Of a stretch of DNA of 64,000 nt, positions 8,946-23,534 are shown piece after piece. Numbering within the stretch: position 1 is the stretch's first letter; every line of letters begins with the position of its first letter. The notes below the pieces were generated by a model. The model was not told the origin of the DNA. It worked only from the letters and a program-made list of their open reading frames with translations, and made no database searches. Source of the DNA: an uncultured bacterium (GTDB lineage Bacteria > Planctomycetota > UBA1135 > GCA-002686595); the NCBI GenBank assembly GCA_943787795.1, contig CALSNU010000002.1, positions 288,001 to 352,000 of the forward strand. The letters run 5' to 3'. Position numbers and translations under genes: made by a program.

Positions 8946-11318
8946 TCACATCATCGAGGCCGGGTCAACGTCGATGGCCATGCGCGGACGCTGGGTCTGA
9001 AGATCCGCGAGGATCGCCCTGGCCCGGGAGAGCCCCTGTCCGGAGAGGGGCGCCTTCAGCAGCAGGTGCCAGCGGTGCCGACCCCGGAGGAGCGCCATGG
9101 GAGCAGGAGCAGGGCCCAGCACGTCCACCTTGTGCTCGCCGAGCGCCTCGCGGAGGATCGCGGCGGCCCGCGCCGCGGCGTCCTTGGCCCGCGCCTCCTC
9201 CTCGTCCTCCCAGATGACCCGCAGGAGGCGACGGTACGGCGGATAGCCCAGCTCGGATCGTGCCCGGTCCTCCTCGAGGGCGAAGGACTCGAAGTCATGA
9301 CGCGCCGCGTGCCGGATGGAGGGCTCCTCCACCGAGGTCGTCTGCACCACGATGTGCCCGGGTAGGTCGGCCCGGCCCGCGCGCCCCGAGACCTGGCTCA
9401 CCAGCTGATAGGTGCGCTCGGCCGCGCGGAAGTCAGGCTGATGCAGGGAGGCGTCCGCCGAGACGATGCCCACCAGCGTGACCTTCGGGAAGTCGAGCCC
9501 CTTGGCGATCATCTGCGTCCCCACCAGTACGTCCAGCTCGCCGCGCCCGAAGGCGGAAAGCGTCTCCTCGTAGTCCTCACGCCGCATCATCGTGTCCGAG
9601 TCCATGCGCCCCACCTTCGCGTGGGGACACAGCACCCGCAGGATCTCCTCCACCCGCTGCGACCCGGCGCCGAGGAAACGCAGGGCCGGGGCCGTGCAGG
9701 CGGGGCACGCGCGCGGCACCTCGATCTCCTGGCAGCACGAGTGGCACACCATCCGCTCGTGCCGCTTGTGCCAGGTCATCGCCACGTCGCAGTCCTCGCA
9801 GCGCAGGGTCTCGCCGCACTCCTGGCACCACAGGACCGGCGCGAAGCCGCGCCGATTGATGAAGAGGATGACCTGCTCGGAGCGCGCGATCGTCTCGCGG
9901 AGCAGCTGCTCGAGCCGGCGCGAGAACAGCCGCGGCTTGCCTCGCTCGTCGCGCTCGCCGCGCATGTCCACCACCTCGACCTCGGGGAGCGGCCGACCCG
10001 AGGCTCGGGCGCGGAGTTGAAGAAGCTCGTAGCGACCCAGGCTCGCGTTGCGCCAGCTCTCCAGCGACGGCGTCGCGCTCCCGAGGACACAGACCGCGTC
10101 CGCGTGCTTCGCCCGCAGCACAGCCACGTCCCGGGCGTGATAGCGAGGCACGCTGCCCTGCTTGTATGAGGGCTCGTGCTCCTCGTCCACGACGATGACG
10201 CCGAGGTCCTTGACCGGCGCGAAGATCGCCGACCGGGCGCCCACGACCACCCGCGCCTCGCCACGCCGGACCCGCTGCCACATGTCGAGGCGCTGCACGT
10301 CGGTCATCCCGCTATGCAGGACCGCGACGGCGCCGAAGCGGTCCAGGAACCACCCGACGGTCTGGGGCGTGAGCGCAATCTCCGGCACCAGCACGATGGC
10401 CCCCTTGCCGCGCTCGAGGGCCGCCTCGATCAGGCGCAGATAGACCTCCGTCTTGCCGCTCCCCGTGACGCCATGGAGCAGCGCCGTGCAGAAGCTCCCC
10501 TGATCCAACGCCTCGGTGAGCCGCTCGACCGCCGTCCCCTGGTCCTCCGTGAGCTGGGCGTGGCGCGGCCGCGCCTCGCGATCGCCCGAGAGGAGGTCAT
10601 CGGGGGCCGCCACCACGTGTTCGAGCACGGCGAGGCCCTTCTTGACCAGCGTGCGGATGGGCCCGTCGGTGACGTTGAGCTTCTTGATGACGTCGACGCG
10701 CGCGATGGGCCCACGCGCCTCGAGCAGGGTCCGAAGGACCCGGTGCTGCTTCGCGTTGGCCGCGCCCTCCAGCTCCGCGAGCCGGGATTCGTCCACGCCC
10801 TCGGCTGGCGACACCACCACCACCGTCCGGCGGCCGCCCTCGCGCTTCAGCGCCGCCGGGAGCACGGCCGCGAGCGCCTCGCCCCAGGAGCACGCGTAGT
10901 AGTCGGCCATCCATCGCGTGAGGTCGAGCAGGTGTTCGTCGAGCACCGGCTCCGAGTCCAGCACCTCGGCGATGGGCTTCAGGCGGCCCGCGGGGACGTC
11001 AGTGGTCTCCCGGGTGGCGACGACGACGGCGATCTCACGGCGCCCGGAGAAGGACACCACCACCCTCACCCCCGCCTCGACGCGCGCCTCCAGCTCCGCG
11101 GGGACCGCGTACGTGTACTCGCGCCGCATGGGCCGATTCAGGGCCACCTCGGCGAAGAGCTTCGCAGCCGGCCCCTTGGGGCCAGCGGCGCTGGATCCAG
11201 TGGCGCGGGATCCCGCCGAACGGCGGCGCTCGGGCTCACGCACGAGCTCGGGCCCGAAGAGGCCGTCGACCTTCTTCGTTGCCCCTAGCTCGTTACTCCT
11301 GCTCCGTCCTCGACCCAT
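8946..11318 (-). CDS. priA: Primosomal protein N' (replication-restart helicase)
   Basis: GVTGSGKTEVY, DEEHE, SATPS, four CxxC pairs, GTQMIAKGLDFP, QVSGRAGR. Confidence 0.96.
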   Translation of the reverse strand: MGRGRSRSNELGATKKVDGLFGPELVREPERRRSAGSRATGSSAAGPKGPAAKLFAEVALNRPMRREYTYAVPAELEARVEAGVRVVVSFSGRREIAVVVATRETTDVPAGRLKPIAEVLDSEPVLDEHLLDLTRWMADYYACSWGEALAAVLPAALKREGGRRTVVVVSPAEGVDESRLAELEGAANAKQHRVLRTLLEARGPIARVDVIKKLNVTDGPIRTLVKKGLAVLEHVVAAPDDLLSGDREARPRHAQLTEDQGTAVERLTEALDQGSFCTALLHGVTGSGKTEVYLRLIEAALERGKGAIVLVPEIALTPQTVGWFLDRFGAVAVLHSGMTDVQRLDMWQRVRRGEARVVVGARSAIFAPVKDLGVIVVDEEHEPSYKQGSVPRYHARDVAVLRAKHADAVCVLGSATPSLESWRNASLGRYELLQLRARASGRPLPEVEVVDMRGERDERGKPRLFSRRLEQLLRETIARSEQVILFINRRGFAPVLWCQECGETLRCEDCDVAMTWHKRHERMVCHSCCQEIEVPRACPACTAPALRFLGAGSQRVEEILRVLCPHAKVGRMDSDTMMRREDYEETLSAFGRGELDVLVGTQMIAKGLDFPKVTLVGIVSADASLHQPDFRAAERTYQLVSQVSGRAGRADLPGHIVVQTTSVEEPSIRHAARHDFESFALEEDRARSELGYPPYRRLLRVIWEDEEEARAKDAAARAAAILREALGEHKVDVLGPAPAPMALLRGRHRWHLLLKAPLSGQGLSRARAILADLQTQRPRMAIDVDPASMM

Positions 11319-11418: not shown

Positions 11419-12840
11419 TCAGGCGGCGCCTTCGGGGTCCCTTCCGAGCACGATGATGGACACATCCGCAGGGAAGGACTCCTCGTCGGCGAAGGCCTCC
11501 AGCGCGGTCAGGATCCCATCCAGAACCACCTCCGTATCCTCATCCGCGTTACGGAGGAAGAGCTTGTAGAAGCGCTTCTCACCGATCTCCTCGCCCTTCA
11601 GCGAGACCACGCGGACCGCGCCCGTCCCCGCCAGCGCGACCCGATCACCGGGGGCCAGCGGGACCTGCCTGGCGGAGATGCTCCGCTCGAAGACCGGTCC
11701 GCGGTCGAACCCCAGCGCGATGCCGTCCGGCTGGATGGCGCGGATGACGTTCTCCTCACGGGACCAGTGGATGAGCGGGAGCTTGTGCCCCGCAGACACC
11801 ACCTCCAACTCGTGGCGCTCCTGGTCGAGGGCCGCTGCGAGGACGGTCACGAACATCCCGCGGCGGACCTCGCGCGCGAGGACGCGGTTCACACCCTTCA
11901 GCACGTCCTCGAGCGAGCCACCCTGGCGGAACGCCGTCTTCAGGTACGCGCGCGCCATGGCCCCGACCAGGGCTCCCGGCACTCCGGTCCCGCTCACGTC
12001 GCAGGCGAAGAAGATCAGCCGCCCGTCCTCGGCCTCTACGAAGTCGTGGAAGTCGCCGCCCGGCTCCGCCGACCCCACGTGCTCCGAGGCCACGTCGTAC
12101 CCTTCGGGGACCGGAATATCGGTGGGGCGGAGAGCCTCTTGAACCTCGAGCGCCACCTCACGTTCACGCTCCCTGACCGAGAGCTCCATCTCCGCGTCGC
12201 GCGCCTCGCGAAGGGAGTCGGTCATGCGGTCCATGGCCCCGGCAAGGAGCGCCACTTCCCCGCCGCCCTGGGCTCGCACCCGGTGGGTCAGGTTGCCGTT
12301 GGCGATCGCGCGGACATCGTCCACGAGCGAGGTGATCGGCTGGCTCACGCGGTTGGCGACGCCCACAGCCACCGCGGCGGCGACCATCAGCACGATCATG
12401 GTCAACGCGAAGACGAGGCCGTAGAGCTTCGCGAGCGGGTCGTCATCCACCGCCGCAGCAGCGGTCACGCCGACGATCTTGTTCTCGGTCTGCGCCTCGC
12501 GGAAGTAGGCGTAGCCGTCCTCTCCGCTCCGGTTCTCGGAGGTGAAGGTCACGCGACCCCGGAGGATGCCTGGCACGACCCGGACCGCGTCCGTGTTGGG
12601 CTGAATGAACGGCAGCTCGCCGTCCTGGTACTGCGACAGCGCGACGGCGGCCTCATCGCGGGCATCGTCGACCGCGGTCTCAAGGATCTCGCTGGTCGCC
12701 CCGAGCATCAGGTACGAGAAGACCAGCAGGACGAGCGTCAGGGGGATCATCATCGCCACGACGAAGCGCGGCGCGATCTTCAGCCCCACACCCCGCGAAC
12801 CGCTGCGCTCCCGCCCCGCGTCCTCGCGCTGACTCACCAT
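11419..12840 (-). CDS. Membrane HAMP + SpoIIE/PP2C-family phosphatase (possibly degenerate)
   Basis: Two TM helices, HAMP (GNLTHRV...GEVALLAGAMDRM), GGDFHD, CDVSGTG, SAGH; ATG overlaps the pgpA stop (TGATG). Confidence 0.85.
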   Translation of the reverse strand: MVSQREDAGRERSGSRGVGLKIAPRFVVAMMIPLTLVLLVFSYLMLGATSEILETAVDDARDEAAVALSQYQDGELPFIQPNTDAVRVVPGILRGRVTFTSENRSGEDGYAYFREAQTENKIVGVTAAAAVDDDPLAKLYGLVFALTMIVLMVAAAVAVGVANRVSQPITSLVDDVRAIANGNLTHRVRAQGGGEVALLAGAMDRMTDSLREARDAEMELSVREREREVALEVQEALRPTDIPVPEGYDVASEHVGSAEPGGDFHDFVEAEDGRLIFFACDVSGTGVPGALVGAMARAYLKTAFRQGGSLEDVLKGVNRVLAREVRRGMFVTVLAAALDQERHELEVVSAGHKLPLIHWSREENVIRAIQPDGIALGFDRGPVFERSISARQVPLAPGDRVALAGTGAVRVVSLKGEEIGEKRFYKLFLRNADEDTEVVLDGILTALEAFADEESFPADVSIIVLGRDPEGAA

Positions 12841-13403
12841 CAGAGCAGCGACGCGCTGAAGGCCGCGAGGGAACCCACCACACCGCCACCATCGACCCCA
12901 AGGGTCCACGCGCTGGGCTCCAGGAAGAAGGTACGCAGCAGCGCCATGACGCCCAGGCCGTAGATGCCCGCGACCACGTCGTCCAGCAGGATCCCGTCCC
13001 CGCCGGGGATGCGCTCGAAGCGCTTCACGGGGGGCGGCTTGGCGATATCGAAGAAGCGGAACACCACGAACGCGACGAAGAGCGAGAGGAGGGTGGGTCC
13101 CCCGACCCAGGCCACGGTCACGAGGTAGCCGATGACCTCATCCACCACGAAGAAGCCCGGGTCCTTCCCCGCGTGGGCCTCGGCCCAGGGGGCCACGGCG
13201 CGCCCCAGAACGTAGAGGACGAGGGCCGCCACGAGCGCCGAGACCAGGAAGTTGGGGGTCCCGGAGAGCAGCCAGGCGATCAAGACGCCGCCGAGGGTCC
13301 CGAAGGTCCCCGGCGCCACCGGCGCGAGGCCCAACCCGCCGAAGGAAGACACGGCCATGCAGGCGATCGCCTTCGGGGTCCACCGGGTGCCCTCGGCGGT
13401 CAA
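12840..13403 (-). CDS. pgpA: Phosphatidylglycerophosphatase A
   Basis: APGTFGT, DPGFFVVDEVIG, FRFFDIAKP, GILLDDVVAG; TTG start overlaps the pgsA stop. Confidence 0.92.
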   Translation of the reverse strand: MTAEGTRWTPKAIACMAVSSFGGLGLAPVAPGTFGTLGGVLIAWLLSGTPNFLVSALVAALVLYVLGRAVAPWAEAHAGKDPGFFVVDEVIGYLVTVAWVGGPTLLSLFVAFVVFRFFDIAKPPPVKRFERIPGGDGILLDDVVAGIYGLGVMALLRTFFLEPSAWTLGVDGGGVVGSLAAFSASLL

Positions 13404-14032
13404 GCGTCGACCTCCCTGAGGATGTCGCGCGTCCGGAGGCAATAGGTGATCCCGGAGCCAATGGTGGTCACCAGAGTCAGCAGAACGAGGCCCTTGACGA
13501 CCAGGTCCCAGAAGTGGAGCCACCAGTCCCCCCAGGGGAAGGCCTCGATCCAGATCAGCCCCCCGACCGCGATGCTCTGGACGATCATCTTGATCTTGCC
13601 GAAGCCGTCAGCCGGGAACTCTCGCCCGAGGCTCTCGATGTAGCCGCGCAGCCCGGTCACCAGGAACTCCCGGGCGAGGATCACCACAACGTAGGTCGCC
13701 GGGAGGCGCTCAGCCGACCAGGGCATGACGCACAGGTAGACCATGGAGCCCAGGATCAAGACCTTGTCCGTGAAGGGGTCCGCGATCCGGCCGAAGGCCG
13801 TGATGATCTGATCCCTGCGTGCGAGGTAGCCGTCCAGGTAGTCGGTGGCCGCGACGACCACGAAGAGCCAGAAGGCGATGAAGAACGGAGCTCGCTTCTG
13901 CTCGATCTGCTCCGCAGACACGTCCCCCCAGACCGCGAAGATGGCGAACAGCACGAGGGAGCCAGCGAAGCGGATCATGGTGATCCGGTTGGGCCAGTGG
14001 GCGAAGACGCCGTCGCGATCCGCTCCGGTCAT
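13400..14032 (-). CDS. pgsA: CDP-diacylglycerol--glycerol-3-phosphate 3-phosphatidyltransferase
   Basis: PNRITMIR and TDYLDGYLARR...FGRIADPFTDK CDP-alcohol motif; ATGA overlap with rimO. Confidence 0.9.
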   Translation of the reverse strand: MTGADRDGVFAHWPNRITMIRFAGSLVLFAIFAVWGDVSAEQIEQKRAPFFIAFWLFVVVAATDYLDGYLARRDQIITAFGRIADPFTDKVLILGSMVYLCVMPWSAERLPATYVVVILAREFLVTGLRGYIESLGREFPADGFGKIKMIVQSIAVGGLIWIEAFPWGDWWLHFWDLVVKGLVLLTLVTTIGSGITYCLRTRDILREVDA

Positions 14033-15387
14033 GCCGGATCTCCCGCCACCTGCGTGCCGATCCAATTGTGTTCCTGGTCGGTGGCCTCGATGCGCACGCG
14101 GATGCGGTCTCCGACCGCGGCATCAGGTGCTGCCGCGAAGGTGACCATGTCGACCTCGGGCGCATCATGGACCGTACGACCAACAATGACGCCGCCGTCG
14201 GGGTCAGGCGGCTCGTCCACGAGCACCTCGACCTCCGTCCCGATAGCACTGGATTGGGTCTTGGCCAACTGAGCGTCACGCTCCTCGAGCACCGCATCCC
14301 GGCGGGCCATGGCCTCCTCCTCCGGGACGCTCCCCTCGAGGCCGAAGCCCGGGGTGCCCTCCTCGGGGGAGTACGTGAAGGCGCCGACTCGGGAGAGCTC
14401 GAACTCGCGGATGAGGTCCACGACCTCGGCGGCGTCCTGGTCGGTCTCCCCGGGGAAGCCAAGCAGCACCGTGGTCCGCAGCGTCAGGCCAGGCACCTCG
14501 GTGCGCAGGCGGTCCAGCGTACGGCGGACCTGATCGCCGCTGCCTGCCCGGCGCATGGCCCGCAGTACGGGCGTCGCGGCGTGCTGAACAGGGATGTCCA
14601 GGTAGGGCACCACCTTGGGGTGCTCCGCGAGCAGGGGTGCGAGGTCCCAGGGAAAGCGGTTGGGGTAGGCGTACATCACGCGCAGCCTGGCGTCACCGTC
14701 GAGGTCTGCGAGGGACTCCACGAGGGCGGGTAGCTCCGTGCCCAGGTCGCGCCCCCAGGCGGTCGAGTCCTCTGCCACCACAACCAGTTCCTTGACGCCA
14801 GCGCCGATCAGCTCCTCGGCCTCCTCGAGGACATCGGAGGGGCGCTTCGAGCGATGGGGTCCGCGGATCGAGGGGATGGCGCAGAAGGAGCACGTGTGGT
14901 CGCAGCCATGGGAGATCCGCAGATAGGCGTAGCTGCCAGGCGTAGCGAGGAGCCGAGCCCCCTCACGGCGCGGCTCACGCAGGCCGGGCCCCTCGAGGTA
15001 CCGCTGATGCTTCTCCCCCTCGGACATGCTGCGGATGTTCCGGGCGAGCGCGCGGTAGTCGCTGATCTCCGCGAACATGTCCACGTCGGGATACTGACGC
15101 TCGAGGGTCCGGCGGTAGCGCTGGACCAGGCAGCCCGCGACGACCACGGCGCCCAGGTCCCCCGCCTGCTTGCGCTCCACGAGATCACGGATCGCGCCGT
15201 GGCTCTCCTCTCTCGCAGGCCCGATGAAGGAGCAGGTGTTCAGGACCACCGTGTGCGCCTCCTCCGGATCGCCCGTGACGACGAGCCCTTCCTCCGCCAT
15301 CCGACCGAGGATCAGCTCGGAGTCGATCAGGTTCCTGGCACACCCGAGGTGAATCAGGGCCACACGGTCAGCGGGACGGACTGTCAA
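14029..15387 (-). CDS. rimO: Ribosomal protein S12 methylthiotransferase RimO
   Basis: LGCARNLIDSE, NTCSFI, radical-SAM CDHTCSFC, C-terminal TRAM domain (DAPEVD). Confidence 0.95.
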   Translation of the reverse strand: MTVRPADRVALIHLGCARNLIDSELILGRMAEEGLVVTGDPEEAHTVVLNTCSFIGPAREESHGAIRDLVERKQAGDLGAVVVAGCLVQRYRRTLERQYPDVDMFAEISDYRALARNIRSMSEGEKHQRYLEGPGLREPRREGARLLATPGSYAYLRISHGCDHTCSFCAIPSIRGPHRSKRPSDVLEEAEELIGAGVKELVVVAEDSTAWGRDLGTELPALVESLADLDGDARLRVMYAYPNRFPWDLAPLLAEHPKVVPYLDIPVQHAATPVLRAMRRAGSGDQVRRTLDRLRTEVPGLTLRTTVLLGFPGETDQDAAEVVDLIREFELSRVGAFTYSPEEGTPGFGLEGSVPEEEAMARRDAVLEERDAQLAKTQSSAIGTEVEVLVDEPPDPDGGVIVGRTVHDAPEVDMVTFAAAPDAAVGDRIRVRIEATDQEHNWIGTQVAGDPA

Positions 15388-15404: not shown

Positions 15405-17825
15405 TCAGGAGTGGGCGAAGTGGTCCTCCCACTCCTCCTCGCTCAGGAGGATATCACGCTTCTTGCCCCCCTTGTACGGGCCGATCAAGCCCTCCGCCTG
15501 AAGCTGATCCAGAAGTTGGCAGGCCTCATCGAACTCCATGTCGAGCTCCTGCTGGAGGACCGAGACCGCCACTCGGCCCTGCCGCACGAGCACGCGGCCC
15601 GCCTTGAGGAGTCGTTCGGAGTCCGCCGAGGCCCCGGAGGGCGGCGACTGGGGCTCGAGAATGACGGCCTCCTCCTCGAGCGCCTCCTCGTACTCGTCCG
15701 GATCAGCGTCCTCGAGCTCTGCGGCCGCCTCGTCCTCCTCGAGGTCCTCCTCGGGATCCTCCGCAGGGTCCTCTTGGGGGCTCTCATCCTCGGCGGCCTC
15801 CTCGTACTCGGCCTCCTCGTACTCAGCCTCCTCCTCCTCGTCGGGCTCCTCCTCGTCGCCTTCCTCTTCTTCCTCTTCTTCCTCTTCTTCGTCGAGCTCG
15901 GCCGCTTCGTAGTCGTCCTCGTCCACGAGCTCGTAGTCACCGTCCTCGAGGGCGTCGATGTCGATCGGGTTGCCGTCCTCGTCGACGTACTCGTACTCGT
16001 CTGACTCTTCCTCAGGCTCTTCCTCAGGCTCTTCCTCAGGCTCCTCCTCAGGCTCCTCCTCCTCAGCTGAAATCTCGTCAGCCGGGGCCTCACCCTCGAG
16101 CGAGTCCTCCGGCGAATCGGCGGCCTGAGCCTCCTCCCCATGGGCGAGGGCGCCCCCTTCCGGCTCGTCACCAGAGCCCGGACCGGCGGTCGGTACAGCG
16201 GGATCTTCAGCCGTGCCGCCGCGGGTCCAGGTCCCATCGGCCTCGGAGACCGTGTCTCCTTCGAAGCCGCCTTCCCACGAGGCCGGGGGTCTCGGGAGCG
16301 AGAGCTCGTCCACATCCGACTCCAACGGCGCCACGCCGCTGGGGAGATCGGTGACCGATGCTTCGGGGGCGGCGGCGCCATCGCCCACCGATCCAGGCGC
16401 CAGATCTCCCTCTCCACCCAGGCGAAGCGACTCCTCGTCGTCCACCAGGTCGAAGGGAGCCACGTCTCCGATCGGGGTCGTGAGTTCAGCAGAAGGGGCC
16501 GGGGGGACGACCTCTGCAGCGGGGGGAGCGGGGCCAGCAGCGGCGGCGCCCCCAAGGGGCGTGGTTCCCTGGGGGATCTCCCCCTTGAGCCGAGGATCGT
16601 CAGGGTAGGGCGAGGGCGGAATCGGCTCCACCTGCTGGAGGCTGGCCGAGGCGTCGCGCCAGACCTCCTCCATGTAGGCGAGGGTGTTGCCGTCCGGCGC
16701 GAGGGCAGCCGCCTCATCGTGAGAGACTCCCTCCGCCTCCCCTCGCACCAGAGCGTCGCCGAGGGTCTTGGGCTCGCTCTTCTTCGGGGCAGGCATCGCG
16801 ACCCGGGGCCGCCTGCTCATCAGGCGACCGCTGACGGCGCCCACCAGACCCCCGAGCCAGCTTGGAATCGCAGCGAAGGAGAAGCCGCCTGCTTGCGCGG
16901 AGGGGGAGGGACCGTCCACCACCGGGTCAGCCTCACGGTCAAGCAGCGGCATCCCGGCGCCTGTGGAAGCCGGTGAGGCCGGATCGGCTGCCGGTACTTG
17001 CTCGGCGCTCGGTCGCGCGGGGGTGACGGCCTCCGAAGCTGCTTCGGGCGCGACGCCGCTGGAAGCTGCCGGGCGGCCACCGGTCGCCTGAGACGGCTTG
17101 GGCCGGCGAGACGCGGCGCCCACGGACTCCTCGGGCCCGCCTGCCGCCTCACCGCCCTTCGCCTTCCCGCCAGCGCCCCTGGGGGCACTTGATCCTGAAC
17201 CGGGTGACTTGCTGGCGGGCCGACTGCTGGACTGCCCGCCGCGACTCGGAGGGGAGATCTCCTGCACCGCCGGCCCCGAGCGCTCGGCGCTCGCGCGCCG
17301 CAGCTCGGGTCCATCGAGGGAGACCTCGAGGGTCCTCGAGCCCTCCCTGGGCGCCTCGGCGAAGGCGAGCCAGAGCGCGACGGCGACGATGCCAGCGCCC
17401 ACGAGGATGCCAGCCCAGGGGCCGACGGCGTCCGCCAGCCGGGCGCCGGTCCCGTCGCCGATCCGTCCACCCGAGCCGACAGCCAGGGCGCTCGAGATCG
17501 CCGCGACGCCGAGGCCACAGACCACGATCCCGACCATCCGGCGCATGAGGTCAGACCGGAGCGCGCCCAGAACGGCCATGGCGCCGAAGACCGCGATGGC
17601 GCCGGAGATCATGAGGCCCGGCCACGTCCCGACCCAGGTCTCCACCCGGGCCGCGAGGGCGGCGGTGCCACCTAGCCCAGCCGAGGACAGGTCCGTGCCA
17701 TCCCGGACGGCCTTGATCAGGGCGACCGCAGGCAGGCACCCGATGAGAAACAGAACGCCACCGAGGAGCTCGGGCCCCCTCGAGGGAATCCGGGCCGCGC
17801 CGCGCTTACGAGGGTCTTCCTTCAT
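15405..17825 (-). CDS. FtsK-like protein with N-terminal TM region and C-terminal gamma domain but no ATPase motor
   Basis: Several N-terminal TM helices, a long Pro/Ala then Glu/Asp-rich linker, and a C-terminus VAVSVLQQELDMEFDEACQLLDQLQAEGLIGPYKGGKKRDIL aligning to the FtsK gamma domain; no Walker A/B. Confidence 0.75.
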   Translation of the reverse strand: MKEDPRKRGAARIPSRGPELLGGVLFLIGCLPAVALIKAVRDGTDLSSAGLGGTAALAARVETWVGTWPGLMISGAIAVFGAMAVLGALRSDLMRRMVGIVVCGLGVAAISSALAVGSGGRIGDGTGARLADAVGPWAGILVGAGIVAVALWLAFAEAPREGSRTLEVSLDGPELRRASAERSGPAVQEISPPSRGGQSSSRPASKSPGSGSSAPRGAGGKAKGGEAAGGPEESVGAASRRPKPSQATGGRPAASSGVAPEAASEAVTPARPSAEQVPAADPASPASTGAGMPLLDREADPVVDGPSPSAQAGGFSFAAIPSWLGGLVGAVSGRLMSRRPRVAMPAPKKSEPKTLGDALVRGEAEGVSHDEAAALAPDGNTLAYMEEVWRDASASLQQVEPIPPSPYPDDPRLKGEIPQGTTPLGGAAAAGPAPPAAEVVPPAPSAELTTPIGDVAPFDLVDDEESLRLGGEGDLAPGSVGDGAAAPEASVTDLPSGVAPLESDVDELSLPRPPASWEGGFEGDTVSEADGTWTRGGTAEDPAVPTAGPGSGDEPEGGALAHGEEAQAADSPEDSLEGEAPADEISAEEEEPEEEPEEEPEEEPEEESDEYEYVDEDGNPIDIDALEDGDYELVDEDDYEAAELDEEEEEEEEEEGDEEEPDEEEEAEYEEAEYEEAAEDESPQEDPAEDPEEDLEEDEAAAELEDADPDEYEEALEEEAVILEPQSPPSGASADSERLLKAGRVLVRQGRVAVSVLQQELDMEFDEACQLLDQLQAEGLIGPYKGGKKRDILLSEEEWEDHFAHS
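16005..16052. repeat. 12-bp tandem repeat x4 encoding (PEEE)n
   Basis: ctc(t/c)tcctcagg four times inside the acidic linker of the ftsK paralog. Confidence 0.85.
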
Positions 17826-17840
17826 GGATCGATTGGCTCA

Positions 17841-20603
17841 TCAAGCCTTGTCCAGGTTGGCCTGGTTCTCCTCCCAGTCCTCGAGGGTCATGAAGATCTC
17901 CCGAGCCTTGGACCCCATGTGGGGGCCGAGGATCCCGGCGTCGCTCATCTGATCAATCAGCCGCGAGGCACGGGTGTATCCGATCCCCAGGGCCCGCTGG
18001 AGGAGGCTGGCGGAGCCGCGGCGATACTTGAGGACGACGGAGACGGCCTCGTTGAACATCTCGTCGACCTTCTCGCCGCCCTGGTTCACAGAGCCCGGAG
18101 GCGCTGTCCCGGTGGCGGTCTGAACGAGCTGCTGGTCGAAGTTCGGTGCGGCCTTCTCGCACACGTGGTCCACCAGCGCCTGGAGCTCGTGATCCTCCAC
18201 GAGGGCGCCCTGAACGCGGACCAGCTGGCTGGACTGCGGCGGCGTGTAGAGCATGTCGCCCTGGCCGAGGAGCTTCTCGGCCCCCATCTGGTCGAGGATG
18301 ACGCGGCTGTCGATCTTGGACGCGACCTGGAAGGCGATCCGCGTGGGCAGGTTGCCCTTGATCAGGCCCGTGATGACGTCAGTGCTCGGGCGCTGGGTGG
18401 CGACGATGACGTGAATGCCGACGGCGCGCGCCTTCTGCGCGAGGCGCGCGATGGCCTGCTCCGCCTCCTTCTTGGACTGCATCATCAGGTCCGCCATCTC
18501 ATCGATGACAAACACGATGTAGGGCACGTGACGCGGGGTGTACTCCTCGTTGAAGTCGTCCCCGAGGCGCTCTCGGAGCTTGTCCTCACCGAGCTTGTTG
18601 AACGCCTTGATGTTCTTGACGCCGGCGTTGTTGAAGAGCTCGTAGCGGCTCTCCATCTTCTCGACCGCCCAGAGCAGGACGTTCGTCGCCTGCTTCATGT
18701 CGGTGACGACCGGCAGCTCGAGGTGCGGGATGTTCTGGAAGATCGACAGCTCGACCATCTTCGGGTCGATCAGGATCAGCTTCACATCGTGCGGCGAGCG
18801 CGTGAGCATGATGCTGGCGATGATCGTGTTGATGCAAACGGACTTACCAGAGCCCGTGGTGCCGGCGATCAGCATGTGCGGCGCCCGCGCGAGGTCCTCG
18901 ACGACGGACTTGCCCTCGGCGTCCATCCCGAGGAACAGCGGCAGCGCCAGGACGTCGTTGTCGTACGCCTCCTGGGTGACCAGCTCGGAGATTCGCACCG
19001 TCCGGCGGTCCTTGTTCGGGACCTCCACGCCGATCGTGTTCTTGCCCGGGATCGGCGCGATGATCCGCACGCTGCGCGCCCGGAGCGTCGCCGCGATCTC
19101 CTGGGCGAGGGCCGTCACCTTGTTCATCCTCGTGCCCTGGGTGACCGTCAGCTCGAACATGGTCACGGCCGGGCCGACCTGGGCGCCCACCACCTCGGCT
19201 TCCACGCGGAAGCTCCGAAGCGCGTTCTCGAGGTTCTCGGCGCTGGTCTCGAGGAACTCCTTGTCCACCCGGGCGCTGCCGCTGGGGGCCTCGAGGAGCT
19301 CGAAGGAGGGCAGCTCCCAGGGGCCCGGGGGTGGGGTCGGGGGCTCGTAGATGGGCTGGCTGATCGTCGAGGCGCGCTTCGCGGCGGCGGCGGCGGCGCG
19401 CTTCGCCTTCGCGGAGACCTCCGCCTCGTCGAAGTTCAGCTCGGGCTCGGGCTCCACCTCAACAGCGGCCTTCTTCTTCGAGCGAGAGCGGCTCTTCTTG
19501 GCCGCAGGCTGGATGATCTCCGGCTCCTCCTCGACCTCCTCTTCCCACTCCTCTTCCTCCCACTCACCCTCCTCGAGCTCGTCGGGATCCACCGGGTTGC
19601 CGTCCTCGTCGACGTACTCGTACTCGACCTCCTCGTCTTCCTCCTCCTCGATGTCCTCCACGTCATCGTGGGCCTCGAGGTCAGGGAGCGGGTCCTTCTT
19701 GGCCCTGGAGGCCGGCTTGCGCGGCCCGCGCGCAGCGGCCTTCCTGCCGCTCTTCTTGCCCCCCTTGGCCGCACCGGGCGCGAGGTCCGCGCCACGAAGG
19801 AAGTCCCAGATCCCCACGAGGAGGCGCTTGGTCCATCCCAGCACAGCGGGGAACGTGTGCTCCCCCATGCGGTCGCGGCGATCCTCCAGCCACTCCCCAA
19901 AGGCACTGATGGCCGTATAGAACGCCATCTCGGTGGCCAACAGGGCGGAGATGATGGCCATGGTGAGGAGCACCACCCACAGCCCGATCTGGCCGAAGCG
20001 GTCCACGAGGCCCCCGTTCGACACGAGCGCCAGCCAGCCTCCAGGACCGTAGGGCAGGTCCGGAGAGAGGCTCGACATCACCTCGTCCTCACCGACCTGG
20101 CTCAGCTCGTCCTGCGCAGCCAGGAAGGCCTCCCTCGACTCCAGGTCTGGCCCGAAGCCCAGGTCGAGGACGAAGGCCGTGCTCAGCACGAAGCACACCA
20201 CGCCCAGGAAGCGCAGCATCGGCATCCGGATCTCCCGCCGCGCGACCACGATCGCGCCCCAGAAGATGCCCAGGATCGCGAGCAGGTAGCCTGAGAGGCC
20301 GATGGCGCAGAAGGCGCCGTTCGCGAGGTAGTGCCCGAGCCGGCCGCCGAGGTTCGCCCCCTCGGGGGCTGCCGCCAGCGGAGTGCTGAACGTCACCATG
20401 GACAGCAGCATCCAGATCGAGGTCCCCACCAGCGCCAGGCCCCCCAGCTCGCGTACCCGCGCTGACGAGTCGTCGTCCAGGGGCTCGCCCATGACGAGAC
20501 TAGCCGCGAGCTGACGCCAGCGGCCTCGATCAGCCCCGCGGGCTGCTTTCTTCTTTGACTTCTTTCGCGCCAACTCGACTACTCCGCGCGTCTCCCCCCT
20601 CAA
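17841..20603 (-). CDS. ftsK: DNA translocase FtsK
   Basis: N-terminal TM region, PHMLIAGTTGSGKS, LILIDPKMVEL, VIDEMADLM, ATQRPSTDVITG, gamma domain GSASLLQRALGIGYTRASRLID; start may be slightly downstream. Confidence 0.97.
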   Translation of the reverse strand: MRGETRGVVELARKKSKKKAARGADRGRWRQLAASLVMGEPLDDDSSARVRELGGLALVGTSIWMLLSMVTFSTPLAAAPEGANLGGRLGHYLANGAFCAIGLSGYLLAILGIFWGAIVVARREIRMPMLRFLGVVCFVLSTAFVLDLGFGPDLESREAFLAAQDELSQVGEDEVMSSLSPDLPYGPGGWLALVSNGGLVDRFGQIGLWVVLLTMAIISALLATEMAFYTAISAFGEWLEDRRDRMGEHTFPAVLGWTKRLLVGIWDFLRGADLAPGAAKGGKKSGRKAAARGPRKPASRAKKDPLPDLEAHDDVEDIEEEEDEEVEYEYVDEDGNPVDPDELEEGEWEEEEWEEEVEEEPEIIQPAAKKSRSRSKKKAAVEVEPEPELNFDEAEVSAKAKRAAAAAAKRASTISQPIYEPPTPPPGPWELPSFELLEAPSGSARVDKEFLETSAENLENALRSFRVEAEVVGAQVGPAVTMFELTVTQGTRMNKVTALAQEIAATLRARSVRIIAPIPGKNTIGVEVPNKDRRTVRISELVTQEAYDNDVLALPLFLGMDAEGKSVVEDLARAPHMLIAGTTGSGKSVCINTIIASIMLTRSPHDVKLILIDPKMVELSIFQNIPHLELPVVTDMKQATNVLLWAVEKMESRYELFNNAGVKNIKAFNKLGEDKLRERLGDDFNEEYTPRHVPYIVFVIDEMADLMMQSKKEAEQAIARLAQKARAVGIHVIVATQRPSTDVITGLIKGNLPTRIAFQVASKIDSRVILDQMGAEKLLGQGDMLYTPPQSSQLVRVQGALVEDHELQALVDHVCEKAAPNFDQQLVQTATGTAPPGSVNQGGEKVDEMFNEAVSVVLKYRRGSASLLQRALGIGYTRASRLIDQMSDAGILGPHMGSKAREIFMTLEDWEENQANLDKA

Positions 20604-22329: not shown

Positions 22330-22983
22330 TCAGCTTGGCGTCGGGCCGTGGGGGCCGATGAGCTGGATGAGGCGCGCCGCCGTCTCCCGCTTGGGGCAGC
22401 CCTCCGCTGACCAGAGCGCACCGTCGGCGTCGAAGACCGTGACGCTGGACTCCGGCGCGTTCAGGGCGCTGGCGCCGTTGAGGACGATCCAGTCGGCGTT
22501 CTTGCGCACGAGCTTCGCGGCCGCCCGCCTCTCGCCGTCCGCCGTCTCGAGGGCAAACGCGATGACCTTGCGGTCTCCCTTGTCCCTGGTGATGGTGCGC
22601 AGCAGGTCCGGATTCTCGACGAGCTCGAGCACCGCTGGGGCGCCGCCCTCCTCCTTCTTCTTCCACTTGCCGTCGAGCCGCTCACGGGGCCTGAAGTCAC
22701 CCACTGCGGCGGCCATGTAGATGGCATCGGCCCGCGGAAAGTGCTCCTCCAGCGCGGCGAGCATGTCCAGGGCGCTCACCACGTCGACCCGCTCGACCCC
22801 TGGCGGGGTCTCCAGGTGAACCGGACCCGCGATCAGGGTCGCGCGGTGCCCCGCTTCCACCGCCGCGCGCGCGATCTCGAAGCCCATTCGACCGCTGGAC
22901 TCGTTCGAGAGGTAGCGGACCGGGTCGAGGTGCTCACGGGTAGGACCCGCGGTCACGAGCACGTGCAAGGAGCCGGAGGCCAA
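22330..22983 (-). CDS. coaB: Phosphopantothenate--cysteine ligase (stand-alone CoaB)
   Basis: VTAGPTREHLDPVRYLSNESSGRMG, AAVGDF, FALET. Confidence 0.92.
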   Translation of the reverse strand: MASGSLHVLVTAGPTREHLDPVRYLSNESSGRMGFEIARAAVEAGHRATLIAGPVHLETPPGVERVDVVSALDMLAALEEHFPRADAIYMAAAVGDFRPRERLDGKWKKKEEGGAPAVLELVENPDLLRTITRDKGDRKVIAFALETADGERRAAAKLVRKNADWIVLNGASALNAPESSVTVFDADGALWSAEGCPKRETAARLIQLIGPHGPTPS

Positions 22984-22985
22984 GT

Positions 22986-23534
22986 TCAGGCCCCCTGACC
23001 GAGGGCTCGCTCCGCCGCAGCCACGATCGTGGCCGGCTCGGCGAGCCGCCCTGCGCCCTTATCTCCGCAGGCCATGTGCCCTTCCTCGGCCTCCACCAGG
23101 GACCAGCCGTCCGCTCGAAGGACGTCGAGGTTCCTCTGGACGGCCGGGTTGGCGAGCATGTGGGGATTCATGGCCGGGCAGACCAGCCGCGGAACGCCCG
23201 CCGGCACGGCGAGCAGCGTGGTCGTCACGAGGTCGTTCGCCATCCCATGGGCCAGTCGCCCGGCGAGGTCCGCGGAGCAGGGGGCGACGATCACCAGGTC
23301 CACCGACCGGGAGAGCTCGATGTGGTCCATCGCTCCGCGGCGCTCGTCTCCCCACTCGGACACCTGGGCAGCCTCACCCGTCACGGCGTGGAAGAGCTGG
23401 GGCGAGACGAGCCGCGCGGCGTTCTCGGTCATCGCCGTCCGCACCTGGTGTCCGTTCTGAGCGAGCTTGCTCGCCAGGTCACAGGCCTTGTAGACCGAGA
23501 CCGAGGCGGAGCAGCACAAGAGGATGTGGGCCAT
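22986..23534 (-). CDS. coaC: Phosphopantothenoylcysteine decarboxylase (stand-alone CoaC flavoprotein)
   Basis: SASVSVYKA, HIEL, APCSAD, PAMN, GHMACGDKGAGRL. Confidence 0.92.
   Translation of the reverse strand: MAHILLCCSASVSVYKACDLASKLAQNGHQVRTAMTENAARLVSPQLFHAVTGEAAQVSEWGDERRGAMDHIELSRSVDLVIVAPCSADLAGRLAHGMANDLVTTTLLAVPAGVPRLVCPAMNPHMLANPAVQRNLDVLRADGWSLVEAEEGHMACGDKGAGRLAEPATIVAAAERALGQGA

Follow-up and report, generated by a model that had tools for sequence, protein, structure and literature searches.

The window analysed here is a stretch of 64,000 nucleotides (contig CALSNU010000002.1 of assembly GCA_943787795.1, positions 288,001 to 352,000) from an uncultured planctomycete, whose genome (G000) is about 85% complete. 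Its minus strand carries a complete ftsK gene (17841–20603) that encodes the four-helix membrane domain (4TM), a linker, the alpha domain, the ATPase and a gamma domain with an intact GYTRASR motif, all four FtsK domains being recognized by Pfam. An open reading frame (ORF) of 806 amino acids (aa) with an ATG start, hereafter X, begins 15 bp past the ftsK stop codon on the same strand (15405–17825). The original prediction held that this gene combines an FtsK-like N-terminal membrane region with a C-terminal gamma domain and that a long acidic linker has taken the place of the ATPase core; the ORF and all three of these features were borne out. The only Pfam match on X is FtsK_gamma (PF09397; aa 737–794, 42 bits, the cut-off being 30.6), with no match on X itself to the ATPase (PF01580), alpha (PF17854) or FtsK_4TM families, and in BLASTP only the gamma domains of X and FtsK can be aligned, at 32% across 81 aa. 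A hidden Markov model (HMM) of the FtsK alpha–beta motor likewise finds nothing below an E value of 2.5 among 75 X orthologs. Since the alpha and ATPase domains are missing, X cannot translocate DNA.

The membrane domain of X (aa 17–159; 17349–17777) shows four hydropathy peaks resembling transmembrane (TM) helices at aa 19–156 and shares a G-rich loop motif with the N-terminal 4TM domain of FtsK. Their homology is invisible in a pairwise comparison of X and FtsK and was established at the family level by profile–profile comparison: profiles built from the N-termini of 69 X and 85 FtsK proteins at the fetched loci are matched by hhalign with a probability of 99% (E value 5e-18, 162 columns). 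The FtsK-derived HMM matches 41 of the 69 X N-termini at E<1e-3 (reversed controls: 0/69), the X membrane HMM matches all 85 FtsK proteins, and Pfam FtsK_4TM (PF13491) is found in 17 of 57 N-termini of X orthologs. At the other end lies a gamma-like winged-helix domain (aa ~734–803; 15417–15626), for which the AlphaFold2 model has a pLDDT of 92. The first ten Foldseek ranks are all FtsK gamma domains (root-mean-square deviation 1.2–1.8 Å), with E values from 2e-3 to 8e-3, none of which reaches E<=0.001 for this small domain; a phmmer search with the X gamma domain against solved structures returned 0 matches. With both ends homologous to FtsK, X is a true FtsK paralog, one that fails the defining trait of the translocases, the motor, yet is clearly an FtsK derivative.

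Between the two ends, about 570 aa follow the membrane helices, first Pro/Ala/Gly-rich and then highly acidic. The Glu/Asp-rich tract (aa ~551–720; 15666–16175) carries a net charge of -86 over aa 551–700 and contains the most acidic 60-aa stretch among the ORFs of the host genome, the second rank belonging to the FtsK linker. Linker length varies from 151 to 774 aa across X proteins (median 453), compared with a median of 187 aa in FtsK. A motif in the middle of the linker (aa ~355–424; 16554–16763), reading GVSxxEAxAL... plus PSPYPxDxRLxG, occurs only in orthologs from the host family, which we label f1 (f9, f30 and f49 below are other families of Planctomycetota).

A tree inferred with FastTree from the joined columns of the N-terminal and gamma domains unites all 69 X sequences in one group (Shimodaira–Hasegawa support 0.96), and an IQ-TREE analysis under the PMSF approach does the same for 29 of 29 (SH-aLRT 87), although this tree includes several long branches and was made without an approximately unbiased test. 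The simplest reading is a single early duplication of ftsK within Planctomycetota followed by losses. The ratio of non-synonymous to synonymous substitution rates (dN/dS), computed against nine congeners (nine pairs), is 0.03–0.15 in the gamma domain, 0.09–0.48 in the membrane domain and 0.07–0.28 in the mid-linker motif; X is under purifying selection and is not decaying. The idea of a decaying, strain-specific duplicate of ftsK, to which the low-complexity linker of variable length and the long branches might lend some colour, is refuted by stop-free frames in 120 of the 125 genomes of the class outside f9, by the spread over 24 families in one clade and by the gamma dN/dS values, and we put its probability at next to nil. 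The original prediction had itself named two outcomes that would undo it, namely the lack of any gamma match and a strain-specific gene with dN/dS near 1; neither was observed, the gamma domain being recognized by Pfam and Foldseek and its dN/dS lying far below 1.

The distribution of X was surveyed in 150 other genomes of the host's class by scoring two gamma matches per genome. Such pairs are present in 120 of the 125 genomes outside f9 (two of the five exceptions carry an X truncated by a contig end) and in none of the 25 from f9. Within a sample of 250 genomes representing the whole phylum, 58 from outside the class have at least two gamma matches; 40 of these regions were fetched, and 39 held X, the remaining one (L117) coding for a Fic-type protein that was dropped. 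Altogether, X was encountered in 24 families, nine in the class and 15 outside it (gamma-less and cut copies counted). No X lies beside ftsK at 20 loci from genomes with a single gamma match, and among the remaining genomes scanned with the X membrane profile, few gave a second, non-FtsK match. The named close relatives of X are from Planctomycetota, and the three nearest Atlas clusters consist of ‘hypothetical’ planctomycete proteins with gamma as the only domain. Many members of the family are misnamed ‘DNA translocase FtsK’ in public records. A protein from Micromonospora (P0067), in which Pfam recognizes gamma only, was discarded because an ATPase-like core is present. Another genome has three successive gamma-like matches within 1.1 kb (G175:C69:81323-82412), one in FtsK and two in ORFs of ~144 aa.

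Residues of the gamma domain are numbered here as in Escherichia coli FtsK according to PMC5052618 (RQFRIGYNR = 1289–1297). By the account given there, R1289, R1292 and N1296 contact the recombinase XerD, with Q1288 and R1289 facing E184 of XerD, and the same gamma surface binds the FtsK-orienting polar sequences (KOPS); the substitution R1300A is reported in PMC2680272 to weaken KOPS recognition. The corresponding segment of the host X, QQELDMEFDEACQ (aa 758–770; 15516–15554), aligns with Q1288–R1300, and the change from FtsK to X reads LLQRALGIGYTRASRLIDQM to VLQQELDMEFDEACQLLDQL. Relative to E. coli, the replacements are R1289>Q, R1292>D, G1294>E, N1296>D, R1297>E and R1300>Q, so that EFDEACQ stands at the position of GYxRAxR, and Q1288 is the only one retained among the XerD-contact residues Q1288, R1289, R1292 and N1296. 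Because these recognition residues have changed, the host X is predicted to be KOPS-blind and, judged by the E. coli interface, to make poor contact with XerD.

The loss of the KOPS-reading motif extends over nearly the whole X family. While G1294, Y1295, R1297 and R1300 are each present in 100% of 91 FtsK proteins, the full GYxRAxR motif is found in one of 76 X proteins, and R1297 and R1300 are kept at 33% each when the counts are weighted over 22 families. With the same weighting, Q1288 is kept at 91%, R/K1289 at 87%, the wing residue R901 at 81% and R862 at 78%, and the structural core is retained. The reversal of charge claimed by the original prediction is real, but it is confined to f1 and is not a trait of the X family as a whole: the mean charge of segment 1288–1304 is -4.7 in the X proteins of f1 (acidic in 23 of 23), +1.7 in the other X proteins (n=53) and +2.0 to +2.5 in FtsK. 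A reversal over the entire domain was rejected, as the mean net charge is -2.0 in X and -1.8 in FtsK (this X set of 77 included the Fic-type L117, a non-member removed from subsequent counts). The f1 gamma domain has many other invariant positions, and these include a basic wing, GPYKGGKKR. The f1 gamma domain would thus present a conserved surface that repels DNA, and for this C-terminal module the predicted ligand is a protein and not KOPS DNA. The label ‘non-DNA-binding’ attached to X by the original prediction is therefore likely to fit f1 with its acidic segment; it does not carry over to other families, in which the segment is basic, Q1288 and R1289 are mostly kept, and one ortholog has a Lys-rich tail.

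That ortholog belongs to a set of six without a gamma domain, five from f49 and one from f30, all of them located apart from ftsK. The f49 proteins (L227, L261, L262, L263 and L264), whose genes stand before pgsA (one of them at a contig edge), have four TM helices and a linker that is strongly acidic in some, and all five share a short C-terminal motif, DPY..GGLL...(F/Y)DWRG(R/Q)P(L/I). The conserved peptide that follows the f49 linker is likely to be a protein-binding tail. The f30 ortholog (L228:10255-12057, genome G298), 8.8 kb from ftsK and before rimO, ends in a histone-like Lys/Ala-rich tail instead of gamma. As gamma has been replaced or lost in some X proteins, the constant core of the family is the membrane anchor with the acidic arm.

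These data bear on the possibility that X is a sequence-independent DNA tether, in which anchor and arm, by way of a KOPS-blind gamma domain, would keep the chromosome close to the membrane or septum, with the acidic helix of f1 a later change that perhaps shifted DNA contact to the basic wing. The persistence of R862, Q1288, R/K1289 and R901 while the base-reading residues go would suit such a tether, as would the net basic segment outside f1, the conserved basic wing within it and the exchange of gamma for a histone-like tail in L228. It is harder to square with a recognition segment that is acidic in every f1 protein, with a strongly acidic linker that would repel DNA, and with five f49 orthologs that have no basic or helix-turn-helix C-terminal module. 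We regard a DNA tether as rather unlikely, though deserving some weight.

The canonical pathway in which FtsK, Xer and KOPS cooperate is intact in the host without any contribution from the gamma domain of X. The genome encodes homologues of XerC and XerD, and a dif-like 28-mer lies outside the window near the switch of GC skew (G000:C6:229287-229314). The counts of GGTGGGGG are 533 on the leading strand versus 23 on the other, those of GATGGGGG 291 versus 22; G[GA]TGGGGG thus falls on the leading strand in 93–96% of cases, and its polarity flips between 228233 and 230963, across dif. It behaves as KOPS do and may be considered a candidate planctomycete KOPS, whose likely reader would be the gamma domain of FtsK itself. 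The candidate is unlike the KOPS octamer of E. coli. Over the host genome another motif, (G)TTGCAGTC / CCGTTGCA, is likewise skewed, with 83–88% of cases on the leading strand.

Could X instead be a dedicated activator of XerD at the septum, leaving the reading of DNA to the gamma domain of FtsK? KOPS and XerD bind the same gamma surface (PMC5052618), isolated gamma activates Xer recombination (PMC3130261), and X keeps Q1288 and R1289 better than R1297 and R1300 (91/87% versus 33/33%). The acidic gamma of f1 would, moreover, match a basic XerD, and f1 XerD indeed has Arg at position 184 in seven of eight cases and at position 186 in seven of eight. A basic residue at position 184 is, however, also found in 6 of 17 XerD proteins of genomes lacking X and in 10 of 22 from carriers outside f1, E184 being kept in just 2 of 47 planctomycete XerD proteins, and a charge swap between X and XerD was rejected, there being no specific covariation among these 47. 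In addition, the host X has Gln in place of R1289, six orthologs are devoid of gamma, genomes without X retain XerC and XerD, and PMC3130261 reports that unlinked products form efficiently only with gamma attached to the motor. Such an activator is consequently an improbable role. As a separate observation, the XerD residue that partners gamma R1289, E184, is rarely kept in the host protein (L139, G000:C3:389763-390737) and 46 others and is often replaced by Arg or Lys, while R1289 of FtsK is conserved at 97%; the interface of Xer activation must therefore differ in Planctomycetota, and the E. coli contacts do not provide a valid standard for judging X.

A further link between X and FtsK is seen in their linkers. 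The motif EYEYVDEDGNP occurs at aa 610–620 of X (15966–15998) and at aa 327–337 of the host FtsK (19593–19625), both being shared within a genus labelled g1, and no other ORF of the host genome carries it in an acidic context. Gene conversion as its origin was rejected: the synonymous codons of the motif vary, and identity within genomes shows no excess (5.83 versus 5.67 of 7 codons). For the same reasons the motif appears to be kept by selection in both linkers, which points to a shared binding motif. An FtsK from a distant family without X (L124, genome G165) has YEYVDEDGNP in its linker, suggesting a recurrent linker motif.

The existence of the X family, the course of its evolution and the changes in its residues are solid; its function, including the role of partner, regulator or scaffold of FtsK put forward by the original prediction, has to be inferred. 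The reading we prefer, with confidence that stops slightly short of even, is that X would work at the division site in association with FtsK, as a tether or adaptor in the membrane, FtsK itself retaining the work on DNA. This ancient ftsK duplicate kept the four-helix anchor and a long acidic linker and lost the DNA motor. Its product may reach the septum or bud site through the FtsK-like membrane domain, either by co-assembly with FtsK's N-terminal domain or by way of the same divisome partners. The disordered acidic linker, bearing short binding motifs of which one is common to the FtsK linker, would act as a flexible arm, and the C-terminal module as a terminal, partner-binding tip. FtsK would go on pumping DNA, reading KOPS and activating Xer, and X would serve the structural or recruiting role that FtsK's N-terminal domain and its linker play in division. 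Its placement at the division site together with FtsK is supported by analogy with other systems: the N-terminal domain of E. coli FtsK is described as forming hexamers at midcell without the motor (PMC3870252), the FtsZ-less divisome of chlamydiae is reported to be organized by FtsK (PMC11975371), and ftsK is given as the sole essential dcw gene of P. limnophila (PMC12283558, PMC12673574). In agreement with the original prediction, which took Planctomycetota to divide without FtsZ while retaining FtsK, the FtsZ_C profile has no match in any of 80 genomes, both carriers and non-carriers of X, and the Tubulin/FtsZ profile has none in the host genome (0/1).

A bolder version, which we consider doubtful, casts X as a dedicated division scaffold of FtsZ-less Planctomycetota: with the two jobs of FtsK split after the duplication, X would co-assemble with the membrane domain of FtsK, mark the division site and recruit the wall-building machinery, using for this the acidic arm and a gamma tip put to new use. 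If true, X would be a first lineage-specific component of planctomycete division.

The close association with FtsK could also serve inhibition. X might be a negative regulator that times pumping, either as a motor-less subunit of FtsK hexamers or through an acidic, DNA-mimicking gamma domain that caps the gamma domain of FtsK. The homologous N-terminal domain, which hexamerizes on its own in FtsK, and the tight tandem of the two genes would allow for this, and so would the acidic f1 helix opposite the basic helix of FtsK. The acidic helix is restricted to f1, though, and an inhibitor carrying its tip on an arm of 450 aa (median) would not require that tip to have a conserved fold, which leaves this explanation with a low probability.

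Several observations weigh against a role of X in division together with FtsK. X was found in none of the 25 f9 genomes: in these genomes, 85–92% complete, the X membrane profile matches FtsK alone. Because of this, and because ftsK directly adjoins rimO with no X in between at the f9 locus L069, X was lost in this family. Most other families of Planctomycetota sampled, which are also without FtsZ, yielded no second match either, and X, judged from its absence in f9 and many further families, is dispensable. Profiling revealed no co-loss of X with FtsW/RodA, XerC/D or MamK-like actin. The linker motif EYEYVDEDGNP is limited to genus g1 and one distant FtsK, and the gamma segment outside f1, still basic at +1.7 (n=53), is equally compatible with DNA contact. 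Finally, X and ftsK are separated in all six gamma-less cases and, among the 75 gamma-bearing loci, in at least 5; since the separated X usually remains before rimO or pgsA, its adjacency to ftsK may reflect history and not function.

The adjacency itself is widespread. The original prediction had proposed a check on the conservation of the tandem pair, and ftsK proved to be immediately upstream of X in 66 of the 75 gamma-bearing loci. In the window, the run of genes continues on the minus strand from ftsK and X to rimO (14029–15387; TIGR01125 above its cut-off), which is the downstream neighbour in 48 of 75 X loci, and further to a pgsA-like CDP-alcohol phosphatidyltransferase gene (13400–14065; family search), pgpA for phosphatidylglycerophosphatase (12840–13523; Pfam), a gene for a protein with a HAMP and a SpoIIE-type phosphatase domain (11419–12909; Pfam) and, as the last member of the conserved run, priA (8946–11318; Pfam). 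The HAMP–SpoIIE gene is a regular member of the ftsK-X-rimO-pgsA-pgpA-priA run in many families. No sigma-70-like promoter was found at the X locus, and terminator-like matches there are at the level expected by chance. Metatranscriptome contigs (four runs of one study) span parts of X and both gene junctions; they were not used as evidence, because neither transcription nor co-transcription can be demonstrated by assembled contigs, to which DNA may have contributed.

This neighbourhood raises the question of whether X acts apart from FtsK, as a landmark or scaffold in the membrane, be it a polar organizer or a protein tied to phospholipid synthesis or to the SpoIIE-type phosphatase. An X separated from ftsK usually stays with rimO-pgsA-(pgpA)-spoIIE, 58 of 75 loci have one of these neighbours, the C-terminal module is exchangeable, and the architecture is similar to that of HubP/FimV or ZipA. 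The adjacency of ftsK, rimO and pgsA is, however, also found in genomes without X (L069, L120, L123, L129 and L134), so the rimO-pgsA neighbourhood is ancestral; besides, the N-terminal domain retains FtsK-type motifs and the linker motif is common with FtsK. An FtsK-independent landmark thus seems unlikely to us.

X may be compared with several known systems. The FtsK/SpoIIIE translocases (FtsK_4TM PF13491, FtsK_alpha PF17854, FtsK_SpoIIIE PF01580 and FtsK_gamma PF09397) share with X the 4TM domain, a disordered linker and gamma in the same order; X differs in having no alpha or ATPase domain, in the loss of the KOPS motif (kept in 1/76), in its longer linker and in a gamma domain that is sometimes replaced or lost. 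Bacillus subtilis has two FtsK homologues, of which SftA is devoid of a membrane anchor. SftA and SpoIIIE offer a precedent for a second homologue sharing the work of the first (PMC9320952), but both are DNA translocases, whereas X retains anchor and gamma without the motor. Laboratory constructs described in PMC3130261, PMC2680272 and PMC5052618, i.e. isolated gamma, XerC–gamma fusions and KOPS-blind FtsK, resemble X in their motor-free gamma or in substitutions at the R1300 position; X is natural, membrane-anchored and ancient, and in f1 positions 1289, 1292 and 1296 have changed as well. With regard to overall design, and possibly to the mode of working, X resembles ZipA, HubP/FimV and RodZ. 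All of these combine a membrane anchor with a flexible, often acidic arm and a partner-binding tip, and the comparison is one of design only. X derives from ftsK and not from rodZ, and its domains and topology differ from those of RodZ (N-terminal HTH_25, single TM helix, periplasmic RodZ_C). X as a replacement of RodZ was considered and rejected: RodZ_C has no match in the host genome (0/1), HTH_25 has one in 80 genomes, and ftsK adjoins rimO in five loci without X.

No description of X was found in the full texts searched on FtsK paralogs, gamma-only proteins and planctomycete FtsK, a scope outside which most subscription papers and supplements fell. Annotation pipelines mask the protein as ‘DNA translocase FtsK’ or ‘hypothetical’. 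In planctomycetes, which divide without FtsZ, ftsK is the one division gene that has been reported as conserved and essential; by retaining precisely the division-related part of FtsK, the membrane domain and the linker, X becomes a concrete candidate for an FtsZ-independent division component. The family also constitutes a natural separation-of-function series for gamma, ranging from near-intact through KOPS-blind and acidic forms to those swapped for a peptide or a basic tail.

Other division-related genes of the host genome include those for MreB, RodA and FtsW. An apparent dcw cluster surrounds ftsW (G000:C5:126575-143721), in which only ftsW was confirmed by family search, and an apparent mreB-rodA cluster follows a small ORF with one TM helix (G000 C1:962551-970963), both mreB and rodA being confirmed in the same manner. 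A link of X to FtsW/RodA was dismissed, as these are present in 78 of 80 genomes whatever the status of X. The host has a MamK-like actin (L142, G000:C3:455817-456620; NF040964, 359 bits, under the cut-off of 400), as do the cultured deep-branching strains of the Saltatorellota preprint (10.1101/817700), whose main text is silent on ftsK. This actin is patchy among Planctomycetota (40/80; 3/15 in f9), and a link to X was likewise rejected, since among 80 genomes it is missing (at E<=1e-40) from 13 carriers of X and present in 10 non-carriers. Elsewhere in the window (22330–23534), coaBC is represented by two adjacent genes, one for the Flavoprotein and one for the DFP domain, beside the gene for guanylate kinase.

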